NCBI GenBank assembly: GCA_947499545.1
Contig: CANMOZ010000010.1
Coordinates: 52,775-116,774, forward strand
From: an uncultured Saccharospirillaceae bacterium
GTDB taxonomy: Bacteria; Pseudomonadota; Gammaproteobacteria; Pseudomonadales; Oceanobacteraceae
Direction: 5' to 3'
Length of the DNA stretch: 64,000 bases
In this document: piece after piece, positions 23,568 to 30,995 of the stretch
Position numbering within the stretch: the first letter of the stretch is position 1
Layout: each line of letters starts with the position of its first letter
The notes under the pieces: model-generated
What the model saw: the letters and a program-made list of their open reading frames with translations, nothing else
Database searches by the model: none
What the model was told of the DNA's origin: nothing
Position numbers and translations under genes: made by a program

Positions 23568-23764
23568 AAATTAATTGTCTATGAATATAGTTAGTACTAA
23601 TTTTGCCTTATCAATAGATCAAAGGCATTAAAAACACCAACAAGGGCTAAGTAACTTTTAGCCCATTGAAAATGGATGCCTTATTATAAACTCAACCTAA
23701 AATTACTCAACTCATTCAACTATTTTATTTGCAGTATTTAAAGCTCCATTTTTAGGTCACAACC

Positions 23765-24631
23765 CTAACCACTAGGCATACAGCATCGCTTGTATTTTTT
23801 TCCACTCCCACAGGGACATGATCCATTTTTATTGACTTTTATATCCTGCAAAATTGCTCGTACATCCTGCTTATAAAATTCCGTTAATGCTTTAAATAAT
23901 TCAGGGTGCTTTTTGGACATAAGATGCGGTCTTTCAAAAAAATATTCAGTAGCTACAGCAAAAAATTCAGCTCTATTTTTAGCACCATAGTCTGAAATAT
24001 TGCTTTTCTTATCATGTATCTCACGCGTTTTTTTCTCAACTAATGAAAACCAAGGAATAGTATACTGAAAGGCCATCAATTGCTCAGGAAAACCGTCACA
24101 CTCACCATCAGCCATATCAATAAGATGAGCAAATTCATGAATGCCTACATTTTGTTTGTCTCGGGAATTTTTGAACCCTTGATAGAGATGATGATGACTA
24201 AGCACCATTTTTCCAGACATTGGACCTGTACCAACCATACCGGCTATATGTGAATCATGTTGATAACACTCAAAGTTTTCATTAAAAGATGTTGGCAAAA
24301 GGTATACTGATTCTAAATTGAAGTAATGCCAATTATCAAAACCCCAAACAGGTATGATAGCGCTAGCCGCGACCAAGAGTCGATCTTCATCAGACACATC
24401 CACCTGGCCAGATTCAACCGAAGTGGTATATAAAAAAAGTATGATTCTTCGATTAAACAACAATTTATCTTTTTCCGATAACCCTCTATAGAATAGAACA
24501 TGTTCTTCTAAAAATTTTGACCACCGCTCTTGCCAAACAATGGTTTGTTCTTGAGCACTTGGAAAAAAACATTGCTTTAACCACAAAAAAACTTGACGTA
24601 TCATTTTCTGACCCATTTTTATACAAATCAA
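23765..24631 (-). CDS. MtfA-like zinc peptidase (M90) with C-terminal SEC-C metal-binding motif
   Basis: HEFAHLIDMADGECDGFP and AEFFAVATEYFFERPHLMSKKHPELFKALTEFYKQD align to E. coli MtfA (HEVAHKLD..., ECFAVLSEYFF...FPSLWQRFCQFYQQD). C-terminal CPCGSGKKYKRCC is a SEC-C motif. Confidence 0.8.
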   Translation of the reverse strand: MICIKMGQKMIRQVFLWLKQCFFPSAQEQTIVWQERWSKFLEEHVLFYRGLSEKDKLLFNRRIILFLYTTSVESGQVDVSDEDRLLVAASAIIPVWGFDNWHYFNLESVYLLPTSFNENFECYQHDSHIAGMVGTGPMSGKMVLSHHHLYQGFKNSRDKQNVGIHEFAHLIDMADGECDGFPEQLMAFQYTIPWFSLVEKKTREIHDKKSNISDYGAKNRAEFFAVATEYFFERPHLMSKKHPELFKALTEFYKQDVRAILQDIKVNKNGSCPCGSGKKYKRCCMPSG

Positions 24632-24667: not shown

Positions 24668-25237
24668 TCATGATTTCACTCCCCTTCCCAAGCTCCATTT
24701 TGCATGCATGTATGAAAATATAATGCCTGCCAGCGCACCGAACAGGTGCGATTCAAACGAGATAGCGTGATCAATTGGAAGCACGCCAAAGACCAAGCCA
24801 CCATATAAAAATACTACCAATAACGCTATCGAAATGCTTTTAATACTTCTTTCAAACCAACCAGAAGCAATAGACAACCCCCAGAGACCAAAGACCCATC
24901 CGCTCGCACCGATGTGCACGGCCGACCGCCCCAAACTCCATACTAGCCCACCGCTAACCAGGATGATAAAAAGGCTAGCAACCATGAAGTATCTTATGGA
25001 TCGCAATATACAAATCGTACCGAGCGTGCAAAAAACCGCCAAATTACTAAACAGGTGGTTCCAATCAAAATGAATAAAAGGAGCTGTAAACAGTTGAAAA
25101 AATAAACGGGGGTTTCTAGGAATAATGCCATACTGTGTTAAATCACCATCCATGGCGACATTAACAACTTGAATAATAATAAAAGTAGAAACCAAAAATA
25201 AGATAACGAGCAGCTTTTTCTTTATTTGAACAATCAT
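24668..25237 (-). CDS. Rhomboid-family intramembrane serine protease
   Basis: 189 aa, polytopic. Carries the HxxxN motif (FIHFDWNHLFSNL), the catalytic GASG (HIGASGWVFGLWG) and the catalytic His in ESHLFGALAGI. Start is 8 bp from the giant ATPase stop. Confidence 0.8.
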   Translation of the reverse strand: MIVQIKKKLLVILFLVSTFIIIQVVNVAMDGDLTQYGIIPRNPRLFFQLFTAPFIHFDWNHLFSNLAVFCTLGTICILRSIRYFMVASLFIILVSGGLVWSLGRSAVHIGASGWVFGLWGLSIASGWFERSIKSISIALLVVFLYGGLVFGVLPIDHAISFESHLFGALAGIIFSYMHAKWSLGRGVKS

Positions 25238-25244
25238 TGTTTGA

Positions 25245-28200
25245 TTAACTCAACTCATCTTCATCCTCTTCGGCTTTTGCTCCCATTATCTCTGTTTTAA
25301 TCGCTCTTAATTGATTTGAAATGTAAGTCATTTTGACATGATTAAGCATGTCAATATCCAACTTTTTATCTAAGCTTTGCAATACTGGAAAAATGGTTTC
25401 CTGAATAGTATCAGCCAATGTAGATAACACTTTATCCATGCCAGGAACTGGCTGATTCACAACTTTTATTTCAGGCTGAGACTTATGTTGTAATGCATTT
25501 GATAGCTTTTCAATCGCCGCTGCTATTTCTTTCGCTCGAGCTTCATCTTTGTTTGCTTCAAAGTGCGTTGCCTTAACGGCAACATCAGATAGTTGACCTA
25601 TCTTTTCAGCTACCTGCCATATTTGTGATGGCAATGTATCAAGCGGCGTAACACTGGTTAGTTGCTTTACATTGTCAGACAGCGCCTGAACTTCTTCTGC
25701 TATTTTTTCTGCTGCATCTTGCTTTGACAATGAACGGATACCATAATTGAGATCTTCCAGCTGAGTTGTAATTTGCTGCACCAAATCACCTCGTGTACGA
25801 GTTTGTAGCCTTACACTGCTGACTAAACTCTCCATTTGTGATGCCATTTTTTCTGCAGAATCCCCTTTAGCAATACTTTGAATACCTTGTGCTATCGTTT
25901 GCATTTGCTGAGCCAGTTGTTGGGTCGTGTCTACTTCTGCTAAAGCCTGAACACCATCAACCAATTCTGACAACTTTGCAACGACCCTAGTGCCTGTATC
26001 CGTTTCACTGCCACCTAAAGCTTTGATTTTAAGAAAATCTTCTTTAATACCTTGCCAGCGCTCTATTTGCTCGGCTGTCATGTTGCCTCTCAGTTCAGCC
26101 AATTTTAATAAATTAGCTTCCGCACCAGTGGTCAACAATTGCGCTTCGCCTACATAATGGTCAGCGATCATTTGCATCAATTCACCCTCATTCATGACCG
26201 CTGACACTTTTTCGGACATTTTATTCATATTCCGATAGCTGCCTTGAAGCTTAAAAGGAGGCTCAACTCGATACTGATCATCTTGTGCAGCCGAAGCAAT
26301 GTACTCTTGATTTATTTTTAAAACAACATCACGAATCACCATCATCTTTCTCAACACTTCAACTATTTCTGTAATTTCAGCTGAACTGTATTGATGGGAT
26401 AAATCTGTTGTTGCTATTTCAGCTCCCTTAGCCATATCAATGAGTTTATACACATCGTCCATATCTCTTAAAGCCAGTGGAGCTAAAGCTTGATTCGATG
26501 TCAGTGCGTTTTCTAAATAACTAAGTGCAAATATTTCATCCATGCCGCCTAAAATATCACCTAGATTGTAGATATCTGCACGGTTGGCAAGCATATCAGG
26601 AATTTTGAATGTCTCACCTGATTCAGTATATGGGTTACCCGCCATTACCACGCAGAATTTTCGTCCACGCATATCATAGGTTTTGGTTTTGCCTTTCCAA
26701 ACACCGTCTATTCTTCGAGTTCCATCACAGAGTGAAATGAATTTTTGTAAAAACTCCGCATCTGTATGCTGTATATCATCCAGATATAACATGACGTTGT
26801 TACCCATTTCCAGTGCTAGATTTAGCTTTTCTAGCTCTTTTCTAGCTGTAGCATTCGGAGCCTGTTCTGGGTCAAGGGATACAACATCATGTCCCAATGA
26901 AGGACAGTTAACCTTCATAAAAATCAATCCAAGTCTATTTGCCACGTACTCCATTAGAGTTGTCTTACCGTAACCTGGGGGTGAAATCATCATCAACAGC
27001 CCCATCAGATCAGTCCGTTTACTGTCCCCCATGGTTCCCATTTGCTTGGCTAAATTATCGCCAATGATGGGTAGGTATGACTCATTAATCAGGCGATTTC
27101 GTACAAAGGAACTTAATGGGCGAGCTTTAAACTCATTTAAACGTAACGCCTCTCGCTCCGTTTCAATTACCTGCTGACGAATGTCCAAATAACGATGATA
27201 AGCTGGTACTGCTTCAAATCGATGCTGCTCCATTTTTAATAAAAACAGATCAAGTCCAAATGCTAGCGTTCTGTCCTTAATCTTTGGATGATCCCCCATA
27301 AGTCCTGAAACAGACAATTCAATATCAACCTCTGTATGACGGCGCTCTAAACGCTCATCAGCATTGATTAAAGCGACAGCTTCGGGAATGTAGCGCTTTA
27401 GTCCAGTTAAATCATTGTCATGAATCATGGCTTCAAGCCAAGCCGTTGTAAGGTTCCAGCGTTCAGCTGGCCAACCCAACATCTTCTCTAATGCCATTTG
27501 AAAACGTCGCCAGGTTTCATCCGCCATAGATTGCTTCAAAGCATCACACAACTGAGTTGCATATTTACTGGTGATAAACCCTTCTCTTTCACGGCCTAGC
27601 TCAGCAACCAAATAGTCTGCTGCTAAACGAATATTCAGTTCTGTAACGGGTAGCGGATGCTTCTCAATAAAGGCTCGCATTGATCCAGCCACTTCTGTCG
27701 CTAACAAGTCAATGGCTTCTGAACTACCGAACACAGCAGCCATTTGCGCAGCTGAACGAGCACGTTCTGGCCAAGTGTTAAATGAAAGCACCGCCTGCTC
27801 TTGTTCAGATTGGACTCTACTGCGCGCTTTACCTTTGATATTGGCCCAAAATATTTGAGCTAATCCTCTACTCGTAGGGTCATATTTAAGTAAATCGGCA
27901 CTTTCTATAGCAGGAATTAATGCTGTTAAGAGTTGAACGGCGTCATGATCATGTATTCCTTTCTCATACCCTTCTTTATAACGCGGGCTCGCGTACTCAC
28001 GTACTAAAGCGTATAATTCATCTTCTTTCAAAAGTGCTTTTTTGAGTTTATCATTTGATAAACCAGCACGCTGATGCTTGGCATCATCAAGAATAAGAGC
28101 AGCCAAATACTCCGCACGATATACGCTAGGCGTTTCTGACTCAAGGTTCATTTCCCAGTAATCACGAAGTCCTAGCAATTCTTCGTGTTTAATAGGCTCA

Positions 28201-30893
28201 TAATAATCTGTTCCTGTCAAATGAACATTTAATTCGCCTTTTCTAGGGATAATCGTAAGATCAAGCTCCTGTGTATTAACTGAAAACCGATGCCTTGGCC
28301 CTAATTTAATGACAGAGCCACCCTCTTCATAAATATCGGTTTTATCCCTTAATGACCGAAGTGCTTGTTCTTTAATGGCTTTGATTCTAGCTTCAATATC
28401 ATCTGCTTTGATCGCTGCATCTAGAGTTCGAAGTTGCTCTATCTGCTCACGAATTTTCATTGCTAACGCATCCGATGCAAAATAGGTATTGAGTTCATCG
28501 GGTTGCGTAAATTTTAAAGAACGTTTTTCAATATTGTTAAGAATTCTTGCAGCTGCATCTGCAACGCTTTGAGCTTTTCTTTGCTGTTCGTCAAGCAGCT
28601 GTTGTTTATGGCTTTCGAAAGATTCGTAGATTTCTTCTCGTTTTTCTAAGATATCAGCCTGAAAATCATCAAACTCACTGTACTGACTCTCCAATTCTTC
28701 TAATTGAATCAATAAGCGGGAAAGTTGCTCATCGCACTTCTCAGGTGTATTCGAGGCACCTAAAGCATTTGAAATACTTTGACTAAAGAGTTTAAATTGA
28801 GCTCCAAACTGGGCAATTGCTTCTGAAGAACCCATTGATTTTTGTTTATGTTTTGCATTGGCTTTACACTGATTAAGCTTTGAATACACCAATGAAATTG
28901 ATTCAATAATACGGGTTCTTATAGTAGCATCATCAACTTTCAGCGTTCCCATCAACTCAGACAATAAATCTAAACCCTGCGTTGTTTCTTCAATGCTTTC
29001 TAAAATTGGTTCTAATTCTGCTACAGTAACGGCTTTATCAACTTCTTTATTAAAATGATCGACTTTGGCTTGATAAGGCTCCAATGATTTCTCATCAGAA
29101 AGAAAATCAACCGTTTTCTCACTTAGCTCTTGCTCTGCTATTTTAAGCTCTTGGTCTAATTGATCAACACGATCAGTATCAATGTAACGCAAATCTTTTA
29201 TCGTCACCAAGTGACCACGTTGTTTTCTAAGGTCACTTAATGCATTAACATATTCTTCTACGGTTTCCCAAGTAGCCGTTTTTATTGCAGAAATCAGCGA
29301 TTGTTGTTTCTGCTCAGCTTCTTGCATTGCTTTATTTGATTGTTTTTGAATGCTCTTAACTTTTTCAAATTCGTCAATCACGAGTTCTGACGTATCGGTA
29401 ATCTGACGCAATGTCGCTGAGATCGATTCAACTTCTCTTTCATTCATCCAAAAGTGATCATCAAAGATTCGTTTTGATGATTTACTTAGTTCTTCGTATA
29501 ACTTTGAAGAAACACTCTGGTTATTAATTAAACGAAAAATACTGTAAAGATCAGAAACGCCCCTCACCAATTCTGCGTTTCCAATTCGCCCAAAAAAGGA
29601 TTGCCTTGGAGGCGCTTTGCTAGCAAATTCATCACTTATATAAGGTGTTTGCCAAATTTGCATGGGGTGAACACGAGTCGGTTCAACTTCGGCAGAAAAG
29701 ATAACTAAGCGACCATCTTCTCCTAACGCATACCCATGACCATAGATTGGGTTTTTCAGCGTTTTTTCAATCAGATTATAAGCAAATAAACCGACAATGC
29801 CTTCTCTAGGTTCATAGAATATATAGAGAACATCTTCACCATTAGGTGAACGAACCTTCTGTTGAAATTTTAAGCCTTCCGTCTTTTCATCGAAATACTT
29901 ATACTCGCCCGTTTGTAAATAATAACCACCAGGGAACATAATCCCATGATCTTCGGGGAGCTGGACGCAAGATTCTCCAAGTGCATCGACGCGAATCACT
30001 GTCTCTGTTAATTGGTTGAAGATAAAGTAACGCCATTTTTCTTCACGATATGGCAATACTTTCAGCAGGATCAAATCCCCAACCTTTGCATAAGCGAATT
30101 GCCCATCGTCTAACGATTGGGTTTCATCTGTTACTGCTTCACGATAAATGCCTAAGCCGTCTTCAGTATTATTTTCAATTTTAATCGTTAGATCGCCACC
30201 AATCGTTTCAACGAAAAGGCTGTCTAAAATATTGACATGCGGATGTCGGCCATCAACACGATCTTCACGCGTAGTAGGAGTCCACTCAAAATCGTATTCT
30301 GGCGGCAATTGAATATCACGCTCACCACGATTATCAATATACTGAATCTTTGTCGCATCCGCAGATACTGACCACCGAAAGACTCGAATATCCTCTAGTT
30401 TTTCTCCAATTTGAAAGCCTGCTAGCAACTTTCCATTTCTGATCGTTAATTCAACGAGTTGCGTATGTTTGTAATATCGATAAAGCTCTTCAAAATCTTT
30501 GATAAATGCAGGATCACTAAGAAATGTATTATCTATTTTGATTGATTCCATTTCCAAGTTGTTATCGACTTCTGACAACTTGAACAATGCAAACACATCT
30601 TCAATTTTGGTTTCTTTTTTTAATCCAATGAATACGTTATAGCCAAATAATAGATGCTCACCAACTTGAACGATATCACGCGCGATACAGTTGTTTTCAG
30701 TTCGAACCCGCACTCTTCCAATGACACTCATCTCAGATGTGCCAAATTCTTTCAGTCGCGCTTGGTTTAGCTCTTGAATCTGTGTTTCAAGTATTTTTCC
30801 TTGTTCGTCCAAGCGTTTTTTTATAATCTCATAGGCGCCGCCTTCGGCAACAGCACTGTCAACTACCTCAGCAGACTGCTTTTGATCTACCAT
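25245..30893 (-). CDS. Giant (1882 aa) coiled-coil P-loop/AAA-type ATPase of unknown function, operonic with flotillin/NfeD/PspA
   Basis: One uninterrupted 5.6-kb ORF. Walker A ISPPGYGKTTLMEYVAN around aa 1275 and Walker B NVMLYLDDIQH about 70 aa later. Flanked by roughly 800 aa of N-terminal beta-rich plus coiled-coil sequence and about 450 aa of C-terminal coiled-coil. Confidence 0.85.
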   Translation of the reverse strand: MVDQKQSAEVVDSAVAEGGAYEIIKKRLDEQGKILETQIQELNQARLKEFGTSEMSVIGRVRVRTENNCIARDIVQVGEHLLFGYNVFIGLKKETKIEDVFALFKLSEVDNNLEMESIKIDNTFLSDPAFIKDFEELYRYYKHTQLVELTIRNGKLLAGFQIGEKLEDIRVFRWSVSADATKIQYIDNRGERDIQLPPEYDFEWTPTTREDRVDGRHPHVNILDSLFVETIGGDLTIKIENNTEDGLGIYREAVTDETQSLDDGQFAYAKVGDLILLKVLPYREEKWRYFIFNQLTETVIRVDALGESCVQLPEDHGIMFPGGYYLQTGEYKYFDEKTEGLKFQQKVRSPNGEDVLYIFYEPREGIVGLFAYNLIEKTLKNPIYGHGYALGEDGRLVIFSAEVEPTRVHPMQIWQTPYISDEFASKAPPRQSFFGRIGNAELVRGVSDLYSIFRLINNQSVSSKLYEELSKSSKRIFDDHFWMNEREVESISATLRQITDTSELVIDEFEKVKSIQKQSNKAMQEAEQKQQSLISAIKTATWETVEEYVNALSDLRKQRGHLVTIKDLRYIDTDRVDQLDQELKIAEQELSEKTVDFLSDEKSLEPYQAKVDHFNKEVDKAVTVAELEPILESIEETTQGLDLLSELMGTLKVDDATIRTRIIESISLVYSKLNQCKANAKHKQKSMGSSEAIAQFGAQFKLFSQSISNALGASNTPEKCDEQLSRLLIQLEELESQYSEFDDFQADILEKREEIYESFESHKQQLLDEQQRKAQSVADAAARILNNIEKRSLKFTQPDELNTYFASDALAMKIREQIEQLRTLDAAIKADDIEARIKAIKEQALRSLRDKTDIYEEGGSVIKLGPRHRFSVNTQELDLTIIPRKGELNVHLTGTDYYEPIKHEELLGLRDYWEMNLESETPSVYRAEYLAALILDDAKHQRAGLSNDKLKKALLKEDELYALVREYASPRYKEGYEKGIHDHDAVQLLTALIPAIESADLLKYDPTSRGLAQIFWANIKGKARSRVQSEQEQAVLSFNTWPERARSAAQMAAVFGSSEAIDLLATEVAGSMRAFIEKHPLPVTELNIRLAADYLVAELGREREGFITSKYATQLCDALKQSMADETWRRFQMALEKMLGWPAERWNLTTAWLEAMIHDNDLTGLKRYIPEAVALINADERLERRHTEVDIELSVSGLMGDHPKIKDRTLAFGLDLFLLKMEQHRFEAVPAYHRYLDIRQQVIETEREALRLNEFKARPLSSFVRNRLINESYLPIIGDNLAKQMGTMGDSKRTDLMGLLMMISPPGYGKTTLMEYVANRLGLIFMKVNCPSLGHDVVSLDPEQAPNATARKELEKLNLALEMGNNVMLYLDDIQHTDAEFLQKFISLCDGTRRIDGVWKGKTKTYDMRGRKFCVVMAGNPYTESGETFKIPDMLANRADIYNLGDILGGMDEIFALSYLENALTSNQALAPLALRDMDDVYKLIDMAKGAEIATTDLSHQYSSAEITEIVEVLRKMMVIRDVVLKINQEYIASAAQDDQYRVEPPFKLQGSYRNMNKMSEKVSAVMNEGELMQMIADHYVGEAQLLTTGAEANLLKLAELRGNMTAEQIERWQGIKEDFLKIKALGGSETDTGTRVVAKLSELVDGVQALAEVDTTQQLAQQMQTIAQGIQSIAKGDSAEKMASQMESLVSSVRLQTRTRGDLVQQITTQLEDLNYGIRSLSKQDAAEKIAEEVQALSDNVKQLTSVTPLDTLPSQIWQVAEKIGQLSDVAVKATHFEANKDEARAKEIAAAIEKLSNALQHKSQPEIKVVNQPVPGMDKVLSTLADTIQETIFPVLQSLDKKLDIDMLNHVKMTYISNQLRAIKTEIMGAKAEEDEDELS

Positions 30894-30995
30894 ATTACAA
30901 CCCTTTTGCCGTGAACATCAGCCGATTTGCTTAGCTATCAACGTATTGCTATCTAACAAAATATTTGGGAGGGAATAAACCCCTCCCAAGCATTG

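Follow-up and report, generated by a model that had tools for sequence, protein, structure and literature searches.

What does a bacterium do with a 213.5 kDa ATPase whose gene lies between those of a flotillin and a rhomboid protease? Much work has gone into bacterial flotillins as organisers of the membrane, and to our knowledge no dedicated ATP-driven partner of theirs has been characterised. The gene lies in a stretch of 64,000 nucleotides from an uncultured Saccharospirillaceae bacterium (the window). An earlier note, made from the sequence alone, had described its product as a single AAA-type P-loop core buried between long flanking regions of no obvious family. The open reading frame begins with ATG and encodes 1882 aa with a pI of 5.0. 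Its parts, from the N-terminus to the C-terminus, are listed below the whole gene.

25245..30893, minus strand: giant AAA+ ATPase gene, assigned BacE/PA3728 orthologue (ORF, Pfam, homologues)
30747..30881, minus strand: N-terminal long helix, aa 5-49 (AlphaFold DSSP)
29451..30791, minus strand: Pfam DUF3686, aa 35-481, beta-rich and propeller-like (Pfam, AlphaFold model, alignment)
28323..29594, minus strand: helical rod, aa 434-857, with heptad-like segments and spectrin-repeat-like three-helix bundles (model and sequence)
28836..29087, minus strand: Pfam DUF7902, aa 603-686, inside the helical rod (Pfam)
27024..28289, minus strand: small beta unit (aa 869-901) and globular all-helical domains (aa ~926-1290) (AlphaFold model)
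26559..27017, minus strand: AAA+ alpha/beta core, aa 1293-1445 (Pfam, AlphaFold, alignment)
26958..26981, minus strand: Walker A PPGYGKTT, aa 1305-1312 (motif, 122-cluster alignment)
26766..26795, minus strand: Walker B VMLYLDDIQH, aa 1367-1376 (motif, 122-cluster alignment)
25974..26558, minus strand: expanded helical lid, aa 1446-1640, conserved, about 195 aa (AlphaFold, alignment)
25248..25973, minus strand: helical lineage-specific tail, aa 1641-1882 (AlphaFold, alignment)

Judged by sequence, the open reading frame is genuine far beyond chance: it matches the DUF3686 profile over its full length (Pfam, E=2.8e-205, profile positions 2-448 of 448), and a database search returns more than 5000 homologues. 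A hydrophobicity scan finds no transmembrane segment (KD19 maximum 1.17), and the ATPase is a soluble, cytoplasmic protein. It is assigned to the DUF3686/BacE family of giant AAA+ proteins, which is already catalogued and routinely mislabelled. The earlier note foresaw that size and coiled coils could earn such a protein the name 'DNA repair ATPase', and NCBI and UniRef give homologues exactly that name. The label comes from the description line of Pfam DUF3686. No support behind it was found, so its propagation beyond the thousands of database entries that carry it should be avoided. Pfam and earlier papers (bacE, PMC10948618; Ravi et al. 2024, PMC11237479) already record this family, with its architecture and operon, which lowers the novelty that the earlier note implied; the term 'DUF3686' was not found in the literature searched.

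The flanking regions do have families in part. DUF3686 and DUF7902 cover portions of them, both being domains of unknown function in Pfam; aa 869-1290 fall outside any assigned family. The description of the N-terminal ~1250 aa as beta-rich plus coiled coil holds for the beta domain and the rod and leaves out the helix at aa 5-49, the beta unit at aa 869-901 and the globular helical domains at aa ~926-1290. Confidence in the AlphaFold models is moderate overall (pLDDT about 71, pTM 0.36-0.40), and the propeller is modelled badly; by DSSP the beta-rich domain (aa 56-415) contains about 26 strands, and the globular helical domains reach a pLDDT of about 85-93. The '~450 aa' of C-terminal coiled coil is overstated, since about 195 of the ~500 aa past Walker B (aa ~1446-1640) form the AAA+ lid. 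The helical tail (aa ~1641-1882) is what remains of that description; it varies between phyla and carries a ~45-aa tandem repeat at aa ~1654-1698 and ~1702-1746.

Across phyla, aa 1-1650 align nearly without gaps at 42-75% identity, with about 50% in the DUF3686 region and, in four other phyla, 69-78% in the AAA+ core. A survey of relatives finds the ATPase module confined to proteins of 1550-2036 aa, in which it occurs singly at about aa 1150-1450 and with which the window ATPase is collinear. Searches of PDB sequences, using either the whole ATPase or a profile built from 22 sequences of the ATPase module, returned only P-loop-level matches to NVL, Rix7 and p97, leaving the ATPase without a solved structural relative in these searches. 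An NCBIfam scan gave no match. The gene itself lies in a lower-GC stretch close to an IS3 transposase.

The AAA+ core and its clade

The core and what follows it present the features of the AAA+ superfamily in succession: an alpha/beta fold, Walker A, Walker B, sensor 1, a candidate arginine finger and then a helical lid. There is one P-loop, as first described; a second 'GKT' at aa 1401 falls in a predicted beta-hairpin (aa 1394-1407) that precedes sensor 1. From K1310 of Walker A to D1372 of Walker B the distance is 62 residues, which makes the previous figure of about 70 aa acceptable. This spacing within one domain, the absence of the ABC signature LSGGQ in a motif scan and the lack of any SMC, RecF or Rad50 profile match agree with the earlier reading of an AAA+ rather than an SMC or ABC architecture, and profile searches placed the core in no other well-characterised family.

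Walker B carries DD (D1372-D1373) in place of DE, a hallmark of the family. Sensor 1 is N1420, and a search for arginine-finger and sensor-2 residues returned the candidates R1438, in the core, and R1554, in the lid within the invariant motif LQGSYRNM. Among 122 representative clusters these positions are near-invariant: K1310 is kept in 122/122, D1372, R1438 and R1554 each in 121/122, and D1373 and N1420 each in 120/122. The intact state and near-invariance of the key residues suggest that the ATPase is catalytically competent.

Membership of the classical AAA clade (PF00004: Vps4, p97, FtsH) was considered and rejected. Pfam PF00004 is not matched over its full length and aligns only at aa 1301-1345, 45 of its 131 positions; in the PDB profile search, matching is restricted to the P-loop/beta-2 stretch. 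The aromatic residue of pore loop 1 is absent, the consensus in the 122 clusters being P-A/S-L-G-H-x-V-T-S-L-D-P. Together with the Walker B DD, this non-aromatic stretch makes a processive threading motor doubtful, and the ATPase could be a slow nucleotide switch.

Over the core as a whole, the closest profile match is a tentative one to the MoxR/AAA_5 group (CbbQ, NorQ, RavA). The two share a hairpin before sensor 1, a GxSxR-like sensor-2 motif (GSYR here) and a similar spacing from Walker A to Walker B. The window ATPase differs in its Walker B DD, in 1290 aa of extra N-terminal domains and in the absence of a VWA partner. A helix-2 insert between beta-2 and alpha-2 is not predicted, a loop and a 4-residue helix appearing there instead, a weak result from a moderate-confidence model.

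The operon in the window and in relatives

The ATPase gene belongs to an operon that encodes, on one strand and in this order, BacA (DUF2170), PspA, a multi-pass membrane protein, a flotillin and the giant ATPase, an arrangement of the bacABCDEF/CesT-PspA-flotillin type. The other genes are these:

34499..35128, minus strand: BacA / YjfI (DUF2170, CesT/Tir-like), first operon gene (Pfam, NCBIfam)
33783..34472, minus strand: PspA/IM30 (ESCRT-III-like), YjfJ type, BacB orthologue (Pfam)
33038..33757, minus strand: multi-pass membrane protein with a soluble C-terminal domain, BacC orthologue (sequence, primer match)
30996..33005, minus strand: flotillin-like SPFH protein, 669 aa, BacD orthologue (Band_7 profile, sequence, primer match)
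24668..25237, minus strand: small rhomboid intramembrane serine protease, 189 aa, with GASG, HxxxN and H164 (Pfam, motifs)
23765..24631, minus strand: MtfA-like M90 zinc peptidase with HEFAH and, at the C-terminus, a SEC-C motif; last operon gene (Pfam, motif)

The window BacA scores above the NCBIfam BacA equivalog cut-off (324 bits vs 300). The third gene is described as YqiJ/YuaF-like by Ravi et al. (PMC11237479); profile tests against the YqiJ and NfeD families came back almost empty, so that the YqiJ identity is weakly supported. Translation of this gene probably starts at an ATG that lies 18 nt past the listed TTG. The flotillin consists of an N-terminal membrane anchor, a Band_7 domain and a long E/A/K-rich helical region, and its single anchor would leave the SPFH domain facing the cytoplasm. 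In contrast to the ATPase, the flotillin, the YqiJ-like protein and the rhomboid are membrane proteins.

The order BacA(DUF2170)-PspA-membrane protein-flotillin-giant ATPase is common to the window and to P. aeruginosa bacABCDEF, the 'biofilm-associated cluster' operon (Macé 2008, PMC2587700; Wallart 2024, PMC10948618). In that species bacA-F are co-transcribed and co-regulated, and the BacE protein is up 8.9-fold in a bacA mutant (PMC10948618). The peptides encoded by published P. aeruginosa RT-PCR primers have matches, placed as expected, in the YqiJ-like protein, the flotillin and the ATPase of the window. On these primers, the operon and the 'ATPase' label of PA3728, the window ATPase is assigned as the orthologue of BacE (PA3728 / PA14_16190). 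The sixth P. aeruginosa gene, bacF, has no counterpart identified in the window, where the rhomboid and the M90 peptidase stand instead. PA3728 is among the genes repeatedly mutated in cystic-fibrosis isolates (PMC8190622), and a P. aeruginosa mutant without the flotillin PaFlo3 shows a mild biofilm phenotype only (PMC13086221).

Ravi et al. 2024 (PMC11237479) have already described this operon by computational means; the architecture and operon they give are identical, down to a shortened flotillin-YqiJ-ATPase form outside proteobacteria. The text examined here mentions a PLD partner but not the rhomboid, zinc-ribbon and M90 partners found here, and it contains no clade assignment or motif analysis.

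The association with flotillin, which the earlier note had marked for a phylogenetic profile, proves very strong: a flotillin (SPFH) gene lies directly upstream of the ATPase gene in 48/50 related loci with enough DNA, spanning at least 5 phyla. These loci include Acidobacteriota, Bacteroidota, Selenomonadaceae and Vulcanimicrobiota, in which the other flanking genes are unrelated. PspA and BacA are missing from several gammaproteobacterial loci and from all four other phyla, while flotillin is retained.

The gene downstream is more variable. The rhomboid does follow directly, as first reported, its ATG (25237) lying 7 nt past the TAA stop of the ATPase (25247..25245) rather than 8 bp. The proposed coupling gains support from relatives: among the 24 that could be measured, 22 have a tight junction (-14 to +28 nt). 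A rhomboid occupies this position in 27/58 loci; elsewhere the slot holds a double zinc-ribbon or PLD-like protein, likewise tightly joined, and in other phyla an unrelated gene. The M90 peptidase gene recurs in only 2 related loci.

What the ATPase may do

The likeliest reading, drawn from gene context and held at about even odds, is that the ATPase uses ATP to remodel the flotillin scaffold. The protein would assemble into a ring via its single AAA+ module, and its propeller-like domain and long helical rod would reach the inner face of the membrane. There its docking site would be the scaffold of flotillin (SPFH) and YqiJ-like protein, whose genes come just before its own; gene order is the sole link to such docking. 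ATP binding and hydrolysis would assemble, disassemble or reshape the scaffold, or extract its client proteins. In gammaproteobacteria the YqiJ-like-flotillin-ATPase core would be part of a PspA (ESCRT-III-like) membrane-stress operon under the control of BacA. The variable slot after the ATPase gene holds a rhomboid protease in the window, where other loci have a double zinc-ribbon or a PLD-like protein, and the M90 zinc peptidase is added in the window lineage. Several observations speak against this reading: the mild phenotype of the PaFlo3 mutant, the gap and hairpin that separate the flotillin and ATPase genes, the Walker B DD with the non-aromatic pore loop, and the moderate confidence of the AlphaFold models.

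SPFH proteins and AAA+ machines are paired in HflK/C-FtsH (PMC13220708) and, together with a rhomboid, in SLP2-PARL-YME1L (PMC10818064) and erlin-RHBDL4-p97 (PMC9437926); YqgP-FtsH joins a rhomboid to an AAA+ protein (PMC7231995). In HflK/C-FtsH the SPFH scaffold forms a cage around an AAA+ protease, sited at the inner membrane of bacteria (PMC13220708). FtsH has a membrane anchor, an M41 protease of its own and a place in the classical AAA clade; the window ATPase is soluble, has no protease domain and differs from FtsH in the DD of Walker B and the hairpin before sensor 1. A further difference is that the SPFH domain in the window would face the cytoplasm. The window encodes together the same three kinds of component as SLP2-PARL-YME1L (the SPY complex) and erlin-RHBDL4-p97, a likeness of composition only, the ATPase being non-orthologous and the rhomboid present in about half of related loci.

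The three precedents that contain a rhomboid also favour another reading, which we regard as unlikely: a membrane-protein dislocase working with proteases, in which the AAA+ ring extracts substrates clipped by the rhomboid or destined for M90, as in an ERAD-like or FtsH-like quality-control hub, and flotillin is a platform only. The tight, conserved ATPase-rhomboid junction and the presence of catalytic residues in both the rhomboid (GASG, H164) and the M90 peptidase (HEFAH) fit such a hub. The distribution of these partners does not, with the rhomboid in fewer than half of the loci and replaced by unrelated genes in other phyla, and M90 rarer still; the non-aromatic pore loop and the Walker B DD also argue against extraction.

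A Vps4-like factor that disassembles the ESCRT-III-like PspA polymer of the same operon is less probable again: PspA is lost from loci where flotillin stays, Pfam finds no MIT-like domain in the ATPase, and the classical AAA profile covers 45 residues only. It is very improbable that the ATPase is a MoxR-type chaperone maturing a partner protein or inserting a cofactor; a VWA domain is absent from all operon genes and from related loci. The chance that this is an NTPase serving anti-phage defence or a conflict system is slimmer still. Its giant size, the lower-GC stretch and the nearby IS3 transposase would suit one, but PADLOC gives no match for the ATPase, flotillin, YqiJ-like protein or rhomboid, the very high conservation and collinearity across phyla are atypical of defence genes, and the synteny with housekeeping-type membrane genes is stable. 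Least credible is a DNA repair ATPase of the SMC/Rad50/RecF type, for which only database names, the Pfam description line, large size and coiled coils speak, and which is contradicted by the single AAA+ fold holding both Walker motifs, by the missing ABC signature and SMC/RecF/Rad50 matches (Pfam, NCBIfam) and by conserved neighbours that are all membrane proteins.

Flotillin remodelling remains the preferred reading, and the DUF3686 family, huge, exceptionally conserved and nearly always flotillin-adjacent, is a candidate ATP-driven flotillin partner. The operon of the Pseudomonas orthologue is tied to biofilm formation and virulence, and the flotillin/AAA+ pair, joined in the window by a rhomboid, gives a bacterial system in which SPFH scaffold remodelling is tractable. 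A bolder version is less likely than not: the DUF3686 ATPase may power the flotillin microdomains of bacteria as their missing energy source, being a propeller-rod-AAA+ machine that cyclically opens or dismantles cytoplasm-facing flotillin cages and is coupled, via a swappable downstream partner (rhomboid, PLD-like or zinc-ribbon), to the cleavage or removal of membrane proteins or lipids. If so, the locus would encode a bacterial counterpart of the erlin-RHBDL4-p97 and SLP2-PARL-YME1L hubs, and the SPFH-rhomboid-AAA+ logic would be older than eukaryotes or would have arisen repeatedly.

Transcription signals

Three signals frame and divide the operon:

35135..35180, minus strand: sigma-70-like promoter TTGACT-17-TAAATT with an overlapping inverted repeat (promoter scan)
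30965..30989, minus strand: terminator-like hairpin, 10 bp stem with 6 GC pairs and a T-rich tail (hairpin scan)
23644..23664, minus strand: terminator-like hairpin past the last operon gene (hairpin scan)

A sigma-54 promoter has been proposed for P. aeruginosa bacA, whereas a search upstream of the window operon found none, and Rfam finds no RNA family within the window. The second signal lies in the 102 nt between the flotillin and ATPase genes, which in relatives are always 100-600 nt apart; this gap and the hairpin in the window mean that expression of the two may be uncoupled. The hairpin is kept inconsistently (17/51 relatives in a crude scan), and an attenuator role for it was dropped on that count. 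An 11-nt inverted repeat, ATCACATGTAA-N13-TTACATGTGAT, overlaps the sigma-70-like promoter and is a candidate operator.

Architecture and family of the giant ATPase

The giant ATPase is encoded by an ATG-started, minus-strand ORF running from 30893 to 25245 (1882 residues; computed mass 213.5 kDa; pI 5.0), in which Walker A (PPGYGKTT, aa 1305-1312) and Walker B (VMLYLDDIQH, aa 1367-1376) were both located. The ORF and motifs thus stand as the earlier note described them, while its domain layout was corrected from Pfam and from AlphaFold models of two pieces built with 55-sequence alignments (aa 1-1200, pLDDT 71.5; aa 1101-1882, pLDDT 71.7). The flanks, previously described as lacking any obvious family, match DUF3686 and DUF7902 in part.

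Domain map of the giant ATPase (AlphaFold model unless Pfam is named)
aa 5-49, N-terminal long helix
aa 35-481, DUF3686 (Pfam, E=2.8e-205, full profile length)
aa 56-415, beta-rich domain of ~26 strands (low to moderate confidence)
aa 434-857, rod of long helices (same stretch flagged by a crude heptad score)
aa 603-686, DUF7902 (Pfam)
aa 869-901, small beta unit
aa ~926-1290, globular helical domains, well modelled
aa ~1293-1445, AAA+ alpha/beta core
aa 1300-1423, AAA_5 (weak Pfam match in the P-loop region; 23.0 bits, cut-off 22)
aa 1301-1345, AAA (weak Pfam match in the P-loop region)
up to aa ~1640, expanded helical lid
aa 1641-1882 (nt 25248..25973), helical tail with a ~45-aa tandem repeat

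The tail repeat follows the pattern QQxxxQxxxxxGIxSxxKxDxAEK…, and the tail exceeds that of most relatives by ~100 aa. No membrane helix was found in the protein (hydrophobicity maximum 1.17 in 19-residue windows).

A search of 5.8 billion proteins returned more than 5000 matches, the best 120 of which share 64-75% identity across ~88% of the length. Homologues carry the names 'AAA family ATPase', 'MoxR-like ATPase' and, as foreseen, the misleading 'DNA repair ATPase'. When 1.84 billion representatives were scanned in full by HMMER using only the ATPase module, 388 clusters reached E<=1e-30; the module lies at ~aa 1150-1250 of a 1550-2036-aa protein in every full-length case, so the architecture is fixed. 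In comparisons with Bacteroidota, Selenomonadaceae, Vulcanimicrobiota and Acidobacteriota homologues, identity is 69-78% in the core, ~50% in the beta domain and 21-53% in the rod and helical domains, and the tail cannot be aligned.

The Pseudomonas aeruginosa counterpart is the bac ('biofilm-associated cluster') operon, in which bacA to bacF are co-transcribed and a bacA mutant shows an 8.9-fold increase in BacE (PA14_16190) protein (Wallart et al. 2024, PMC10948618). Orthology was checked through the peptides encoded by the RT-PCR primers of that study (GLILKV, RIIEVI, EGDFFN and PKNNCI), which have window counterparts at the expected positions: GLIFKV in the membrane protein, KIIRVI and GEDHFFDN in the flotillin, and TENNCI in the ATPase (aa 65-70). 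PA3728 (BacE) is listed as an 'ATPase' mutated repeatedly in cystic-fibrosis isolates (PMC8190622), and deleting the flotillin (PaFlo3) affects biofilms only mildly (PMC13086221). Ravi et al. 2024 (PMC11237479) described the operon computationally, together with shortened flotillin/YqiJ/ATPase versions elsewhere. The protein is therefore not new as a kind: its family is catalogued in Pfam, described in the literature and experimentally untouched. The literature yielded no functional study of a BacE-type ATPase, and 'DUF3686' matched no paper of the library searched.

The AAA+ core

A distance of 62 residues separates the P-loop lysine from the first aspartate of Walker B, and neither a second nucleotide-binding site nor an ABC signature motif was found in the whole protein. 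These features bear out an AAA+ rather than SMC/ABC assignment and contradict a DNA repair ATPase. Conservation was counted in an alignment of 122 representative clusters (50% identity level) with the full module, in which the catalytic residues hardly vary.

Catalytic positions of the core (clusters conserving each)
K1310, Walker A lysine, 122/122
D1372, Walker B, 121/122
D1373, Walker B, never glutamate, 120/122
N1420, sensor 1, 120/122
R1438, arginine-finger position, 121/122
R1554, sensor-2 candidate within an invariant G-S-Y-R, 121/122

On sequence, the enzyme is presumably active. The pore-loop-1 stretch, though conserved, lacks an aromatic residue; instead of unfolding by classical threading, the protein may work as a remodeller or a nucleotide switch.

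The modelled core inclines to the hairpin-bearing clades and MoxR/AAA_5 on three counts: a beta-hairpin predicted at aa 1394-1407, which separates helix alpha-3 from the sensor-1 strand; the AAA_5 match across the whole core; and the comparison with CbbQ, which gives a low rmsd and the highest identity. Against strict MoxR membership, the model predicts no helix-2 insert and the neighbouring genes include no VWA partner. Tests spoke against a MoxR-type chaperone and likewise against a defence NTPase.

The operon and a proposed role

Seven genes on one strand form the cluster.

Genes of the cluster, in order
1, BacA/YjfI (DUF2170; above the NCBIfam BacA equivalog cut-off)
2, PspA
3, 33038..33757, minus strand, multi-pass membrane protein (YqiJ-like)
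4, 30996..33005, minus strand, 669-aa SPFH/flotillin-like protein (Band_7, E=1.7e-6, first 230 aa)
5, giant ATPase
6, rhomboid
7, MtfA-like M90 peptidase with SEC-C motif

The full-length flotillin-like protein has no Pfam match even at E<=1, Band_7 appearing only when the first 230 aa are scanned alone. The match is apparently masked by the long stretch rich in E, A and K, so that flotillins of this kind may escape automated annotation. For the YqiJ-like gene, the TTG listed as its start probably lies too far upstream; an ATG 18 nt downstream (MFALLL…) is the start equivalent in relatives, and L001 and L050, two related loci, have a stop codon inside the region aligned to the extension.

Context was compared across 70 related loci (contigs, one genome per species). 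The suspected flotillin link holds, the flotillin gene lying immediately upstream in 48/50 loci with enough upstream DNA. In other phyla the membrane protein, flotillin and ATPase alone persist, with unrelated flanks. PspA, on which a rival Vps4-like disassemblase would act, is present in 38/47 loci; those without it include every other-phylum locus.

The rhomboid, which a rival protease-feeding dislocase might serve, follows the ATPase in 27/58 loci. Its window ATG (25237) lies 7 nt past the ATPase TAA stop, and the gap is −14 to +28 nt in 22/24 loci with a placeable rhomboid start, supporting the translational coupling proposed earlier. At least seven rhomboid-less loci carry instead a soluble double zinc-ribbon protein (~180 aa, two TFIIB-type ribbons), and two a PLD/HKD-like protein beginning at the base following the ATPase stop. 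The partner encoded in this slot is therefore swappable.

Genes replacing the rhomboid (locus:positions within the locus)
Zinc-ribbon, L001:15289-15822
Zinc-ribbon, L015:15406-15954
Zinc-ribbon, L018:15434-15976
Zinc-ribbon, L022:15310-15858
Zinc-ribbon, L037:15513-16058
Zinc-ribbon, L057:15398-15940
Zinc-ribbon, L058:15491-16036
PLD/HKD-like, L011:7325-8014
PLD/HKD-like, L051:2721-3413

In two Kangiellaceae loci (L060:6692-7213; L061:6404-6907) the rhomboid lies upstream, flanked by pspA and the YqiJ-like gene, retained in the operon despite its changed position.

The conserved gene order, intact AAA+ machinery, lack of membrane segments and precedents joining SPFH scaffolds to AAA+ machines and rhomboids (HflK/C-FtsH, SLP2-PARL-YME1L, erlin-RHBDL4-p97, YqgP-FtsH) point to an ATP-driven remodeller whose target would be the flotillin/YqiJ-like scaffold on the cytoplasmic side of the membrane. 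The remodeller would be integrated into the PspA stress operon in gammaproteobacteria, bringing a variable, tightly coupled downstream partner. We infer physical interaction with the scaffold, ring formation and the actual substrate, and therefore give the remodeller about an even chance. The recurrent SPFH and AAA+ (and rhomboid) composition is the most interesting point, and opens the role of bacterial flotillins to experiment.

Regulatory signals and surroundings

The flotillin-ATPase gap is 100-600 nt in all 51 relatives measured, never a tight junction. In the window it holds the strongest terminator-like hairpin and T-tract of the region (30965..30989, minus strand), and 17/51 relatives have a hairpin with a T-rich tail there. 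From sequence, this arrangement may set a high flotillin-to-ATPase ratio.

A perfect inverted repeat of 11 nt, ATCACATGTAA-N13-TTACATGTGAT, overlaps the sigma-70-like promoter before the bacA-like gene (35135..35180, minus strand) and is a likely operator. A sigma-54 site has been proposed at P. aeruginosa bacA, whereas no −24/−12 site was found at the window's bacA-like promoter region. A ribbon-helix-helix DNA-binding motif may be present in the first ~60 aa of the BacA-like protein (…LVKKEVWILPEHAKQL…); this would be in keeping with the negative control that BacA is reported to exert on the operon. Upstream of the promoter, the 11-mer AAGTGAGCACA occurs twice, ~90 nt apart (35240..35345, minus strand).

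Beside the operon lie two divergently oriented plus-strand ORFs matching no Pfam family (35665..36105, 146 aa; 36134..37492, 452 aa), and an IS3-type transposase (rve integrase core and HTH_Tnp_1; 37670..38419, minus strand) lies 2.5 kb away. GC is 0.37-0.44 across ~20-50 kb of the window, against 0.45-0.48 in the flanks.
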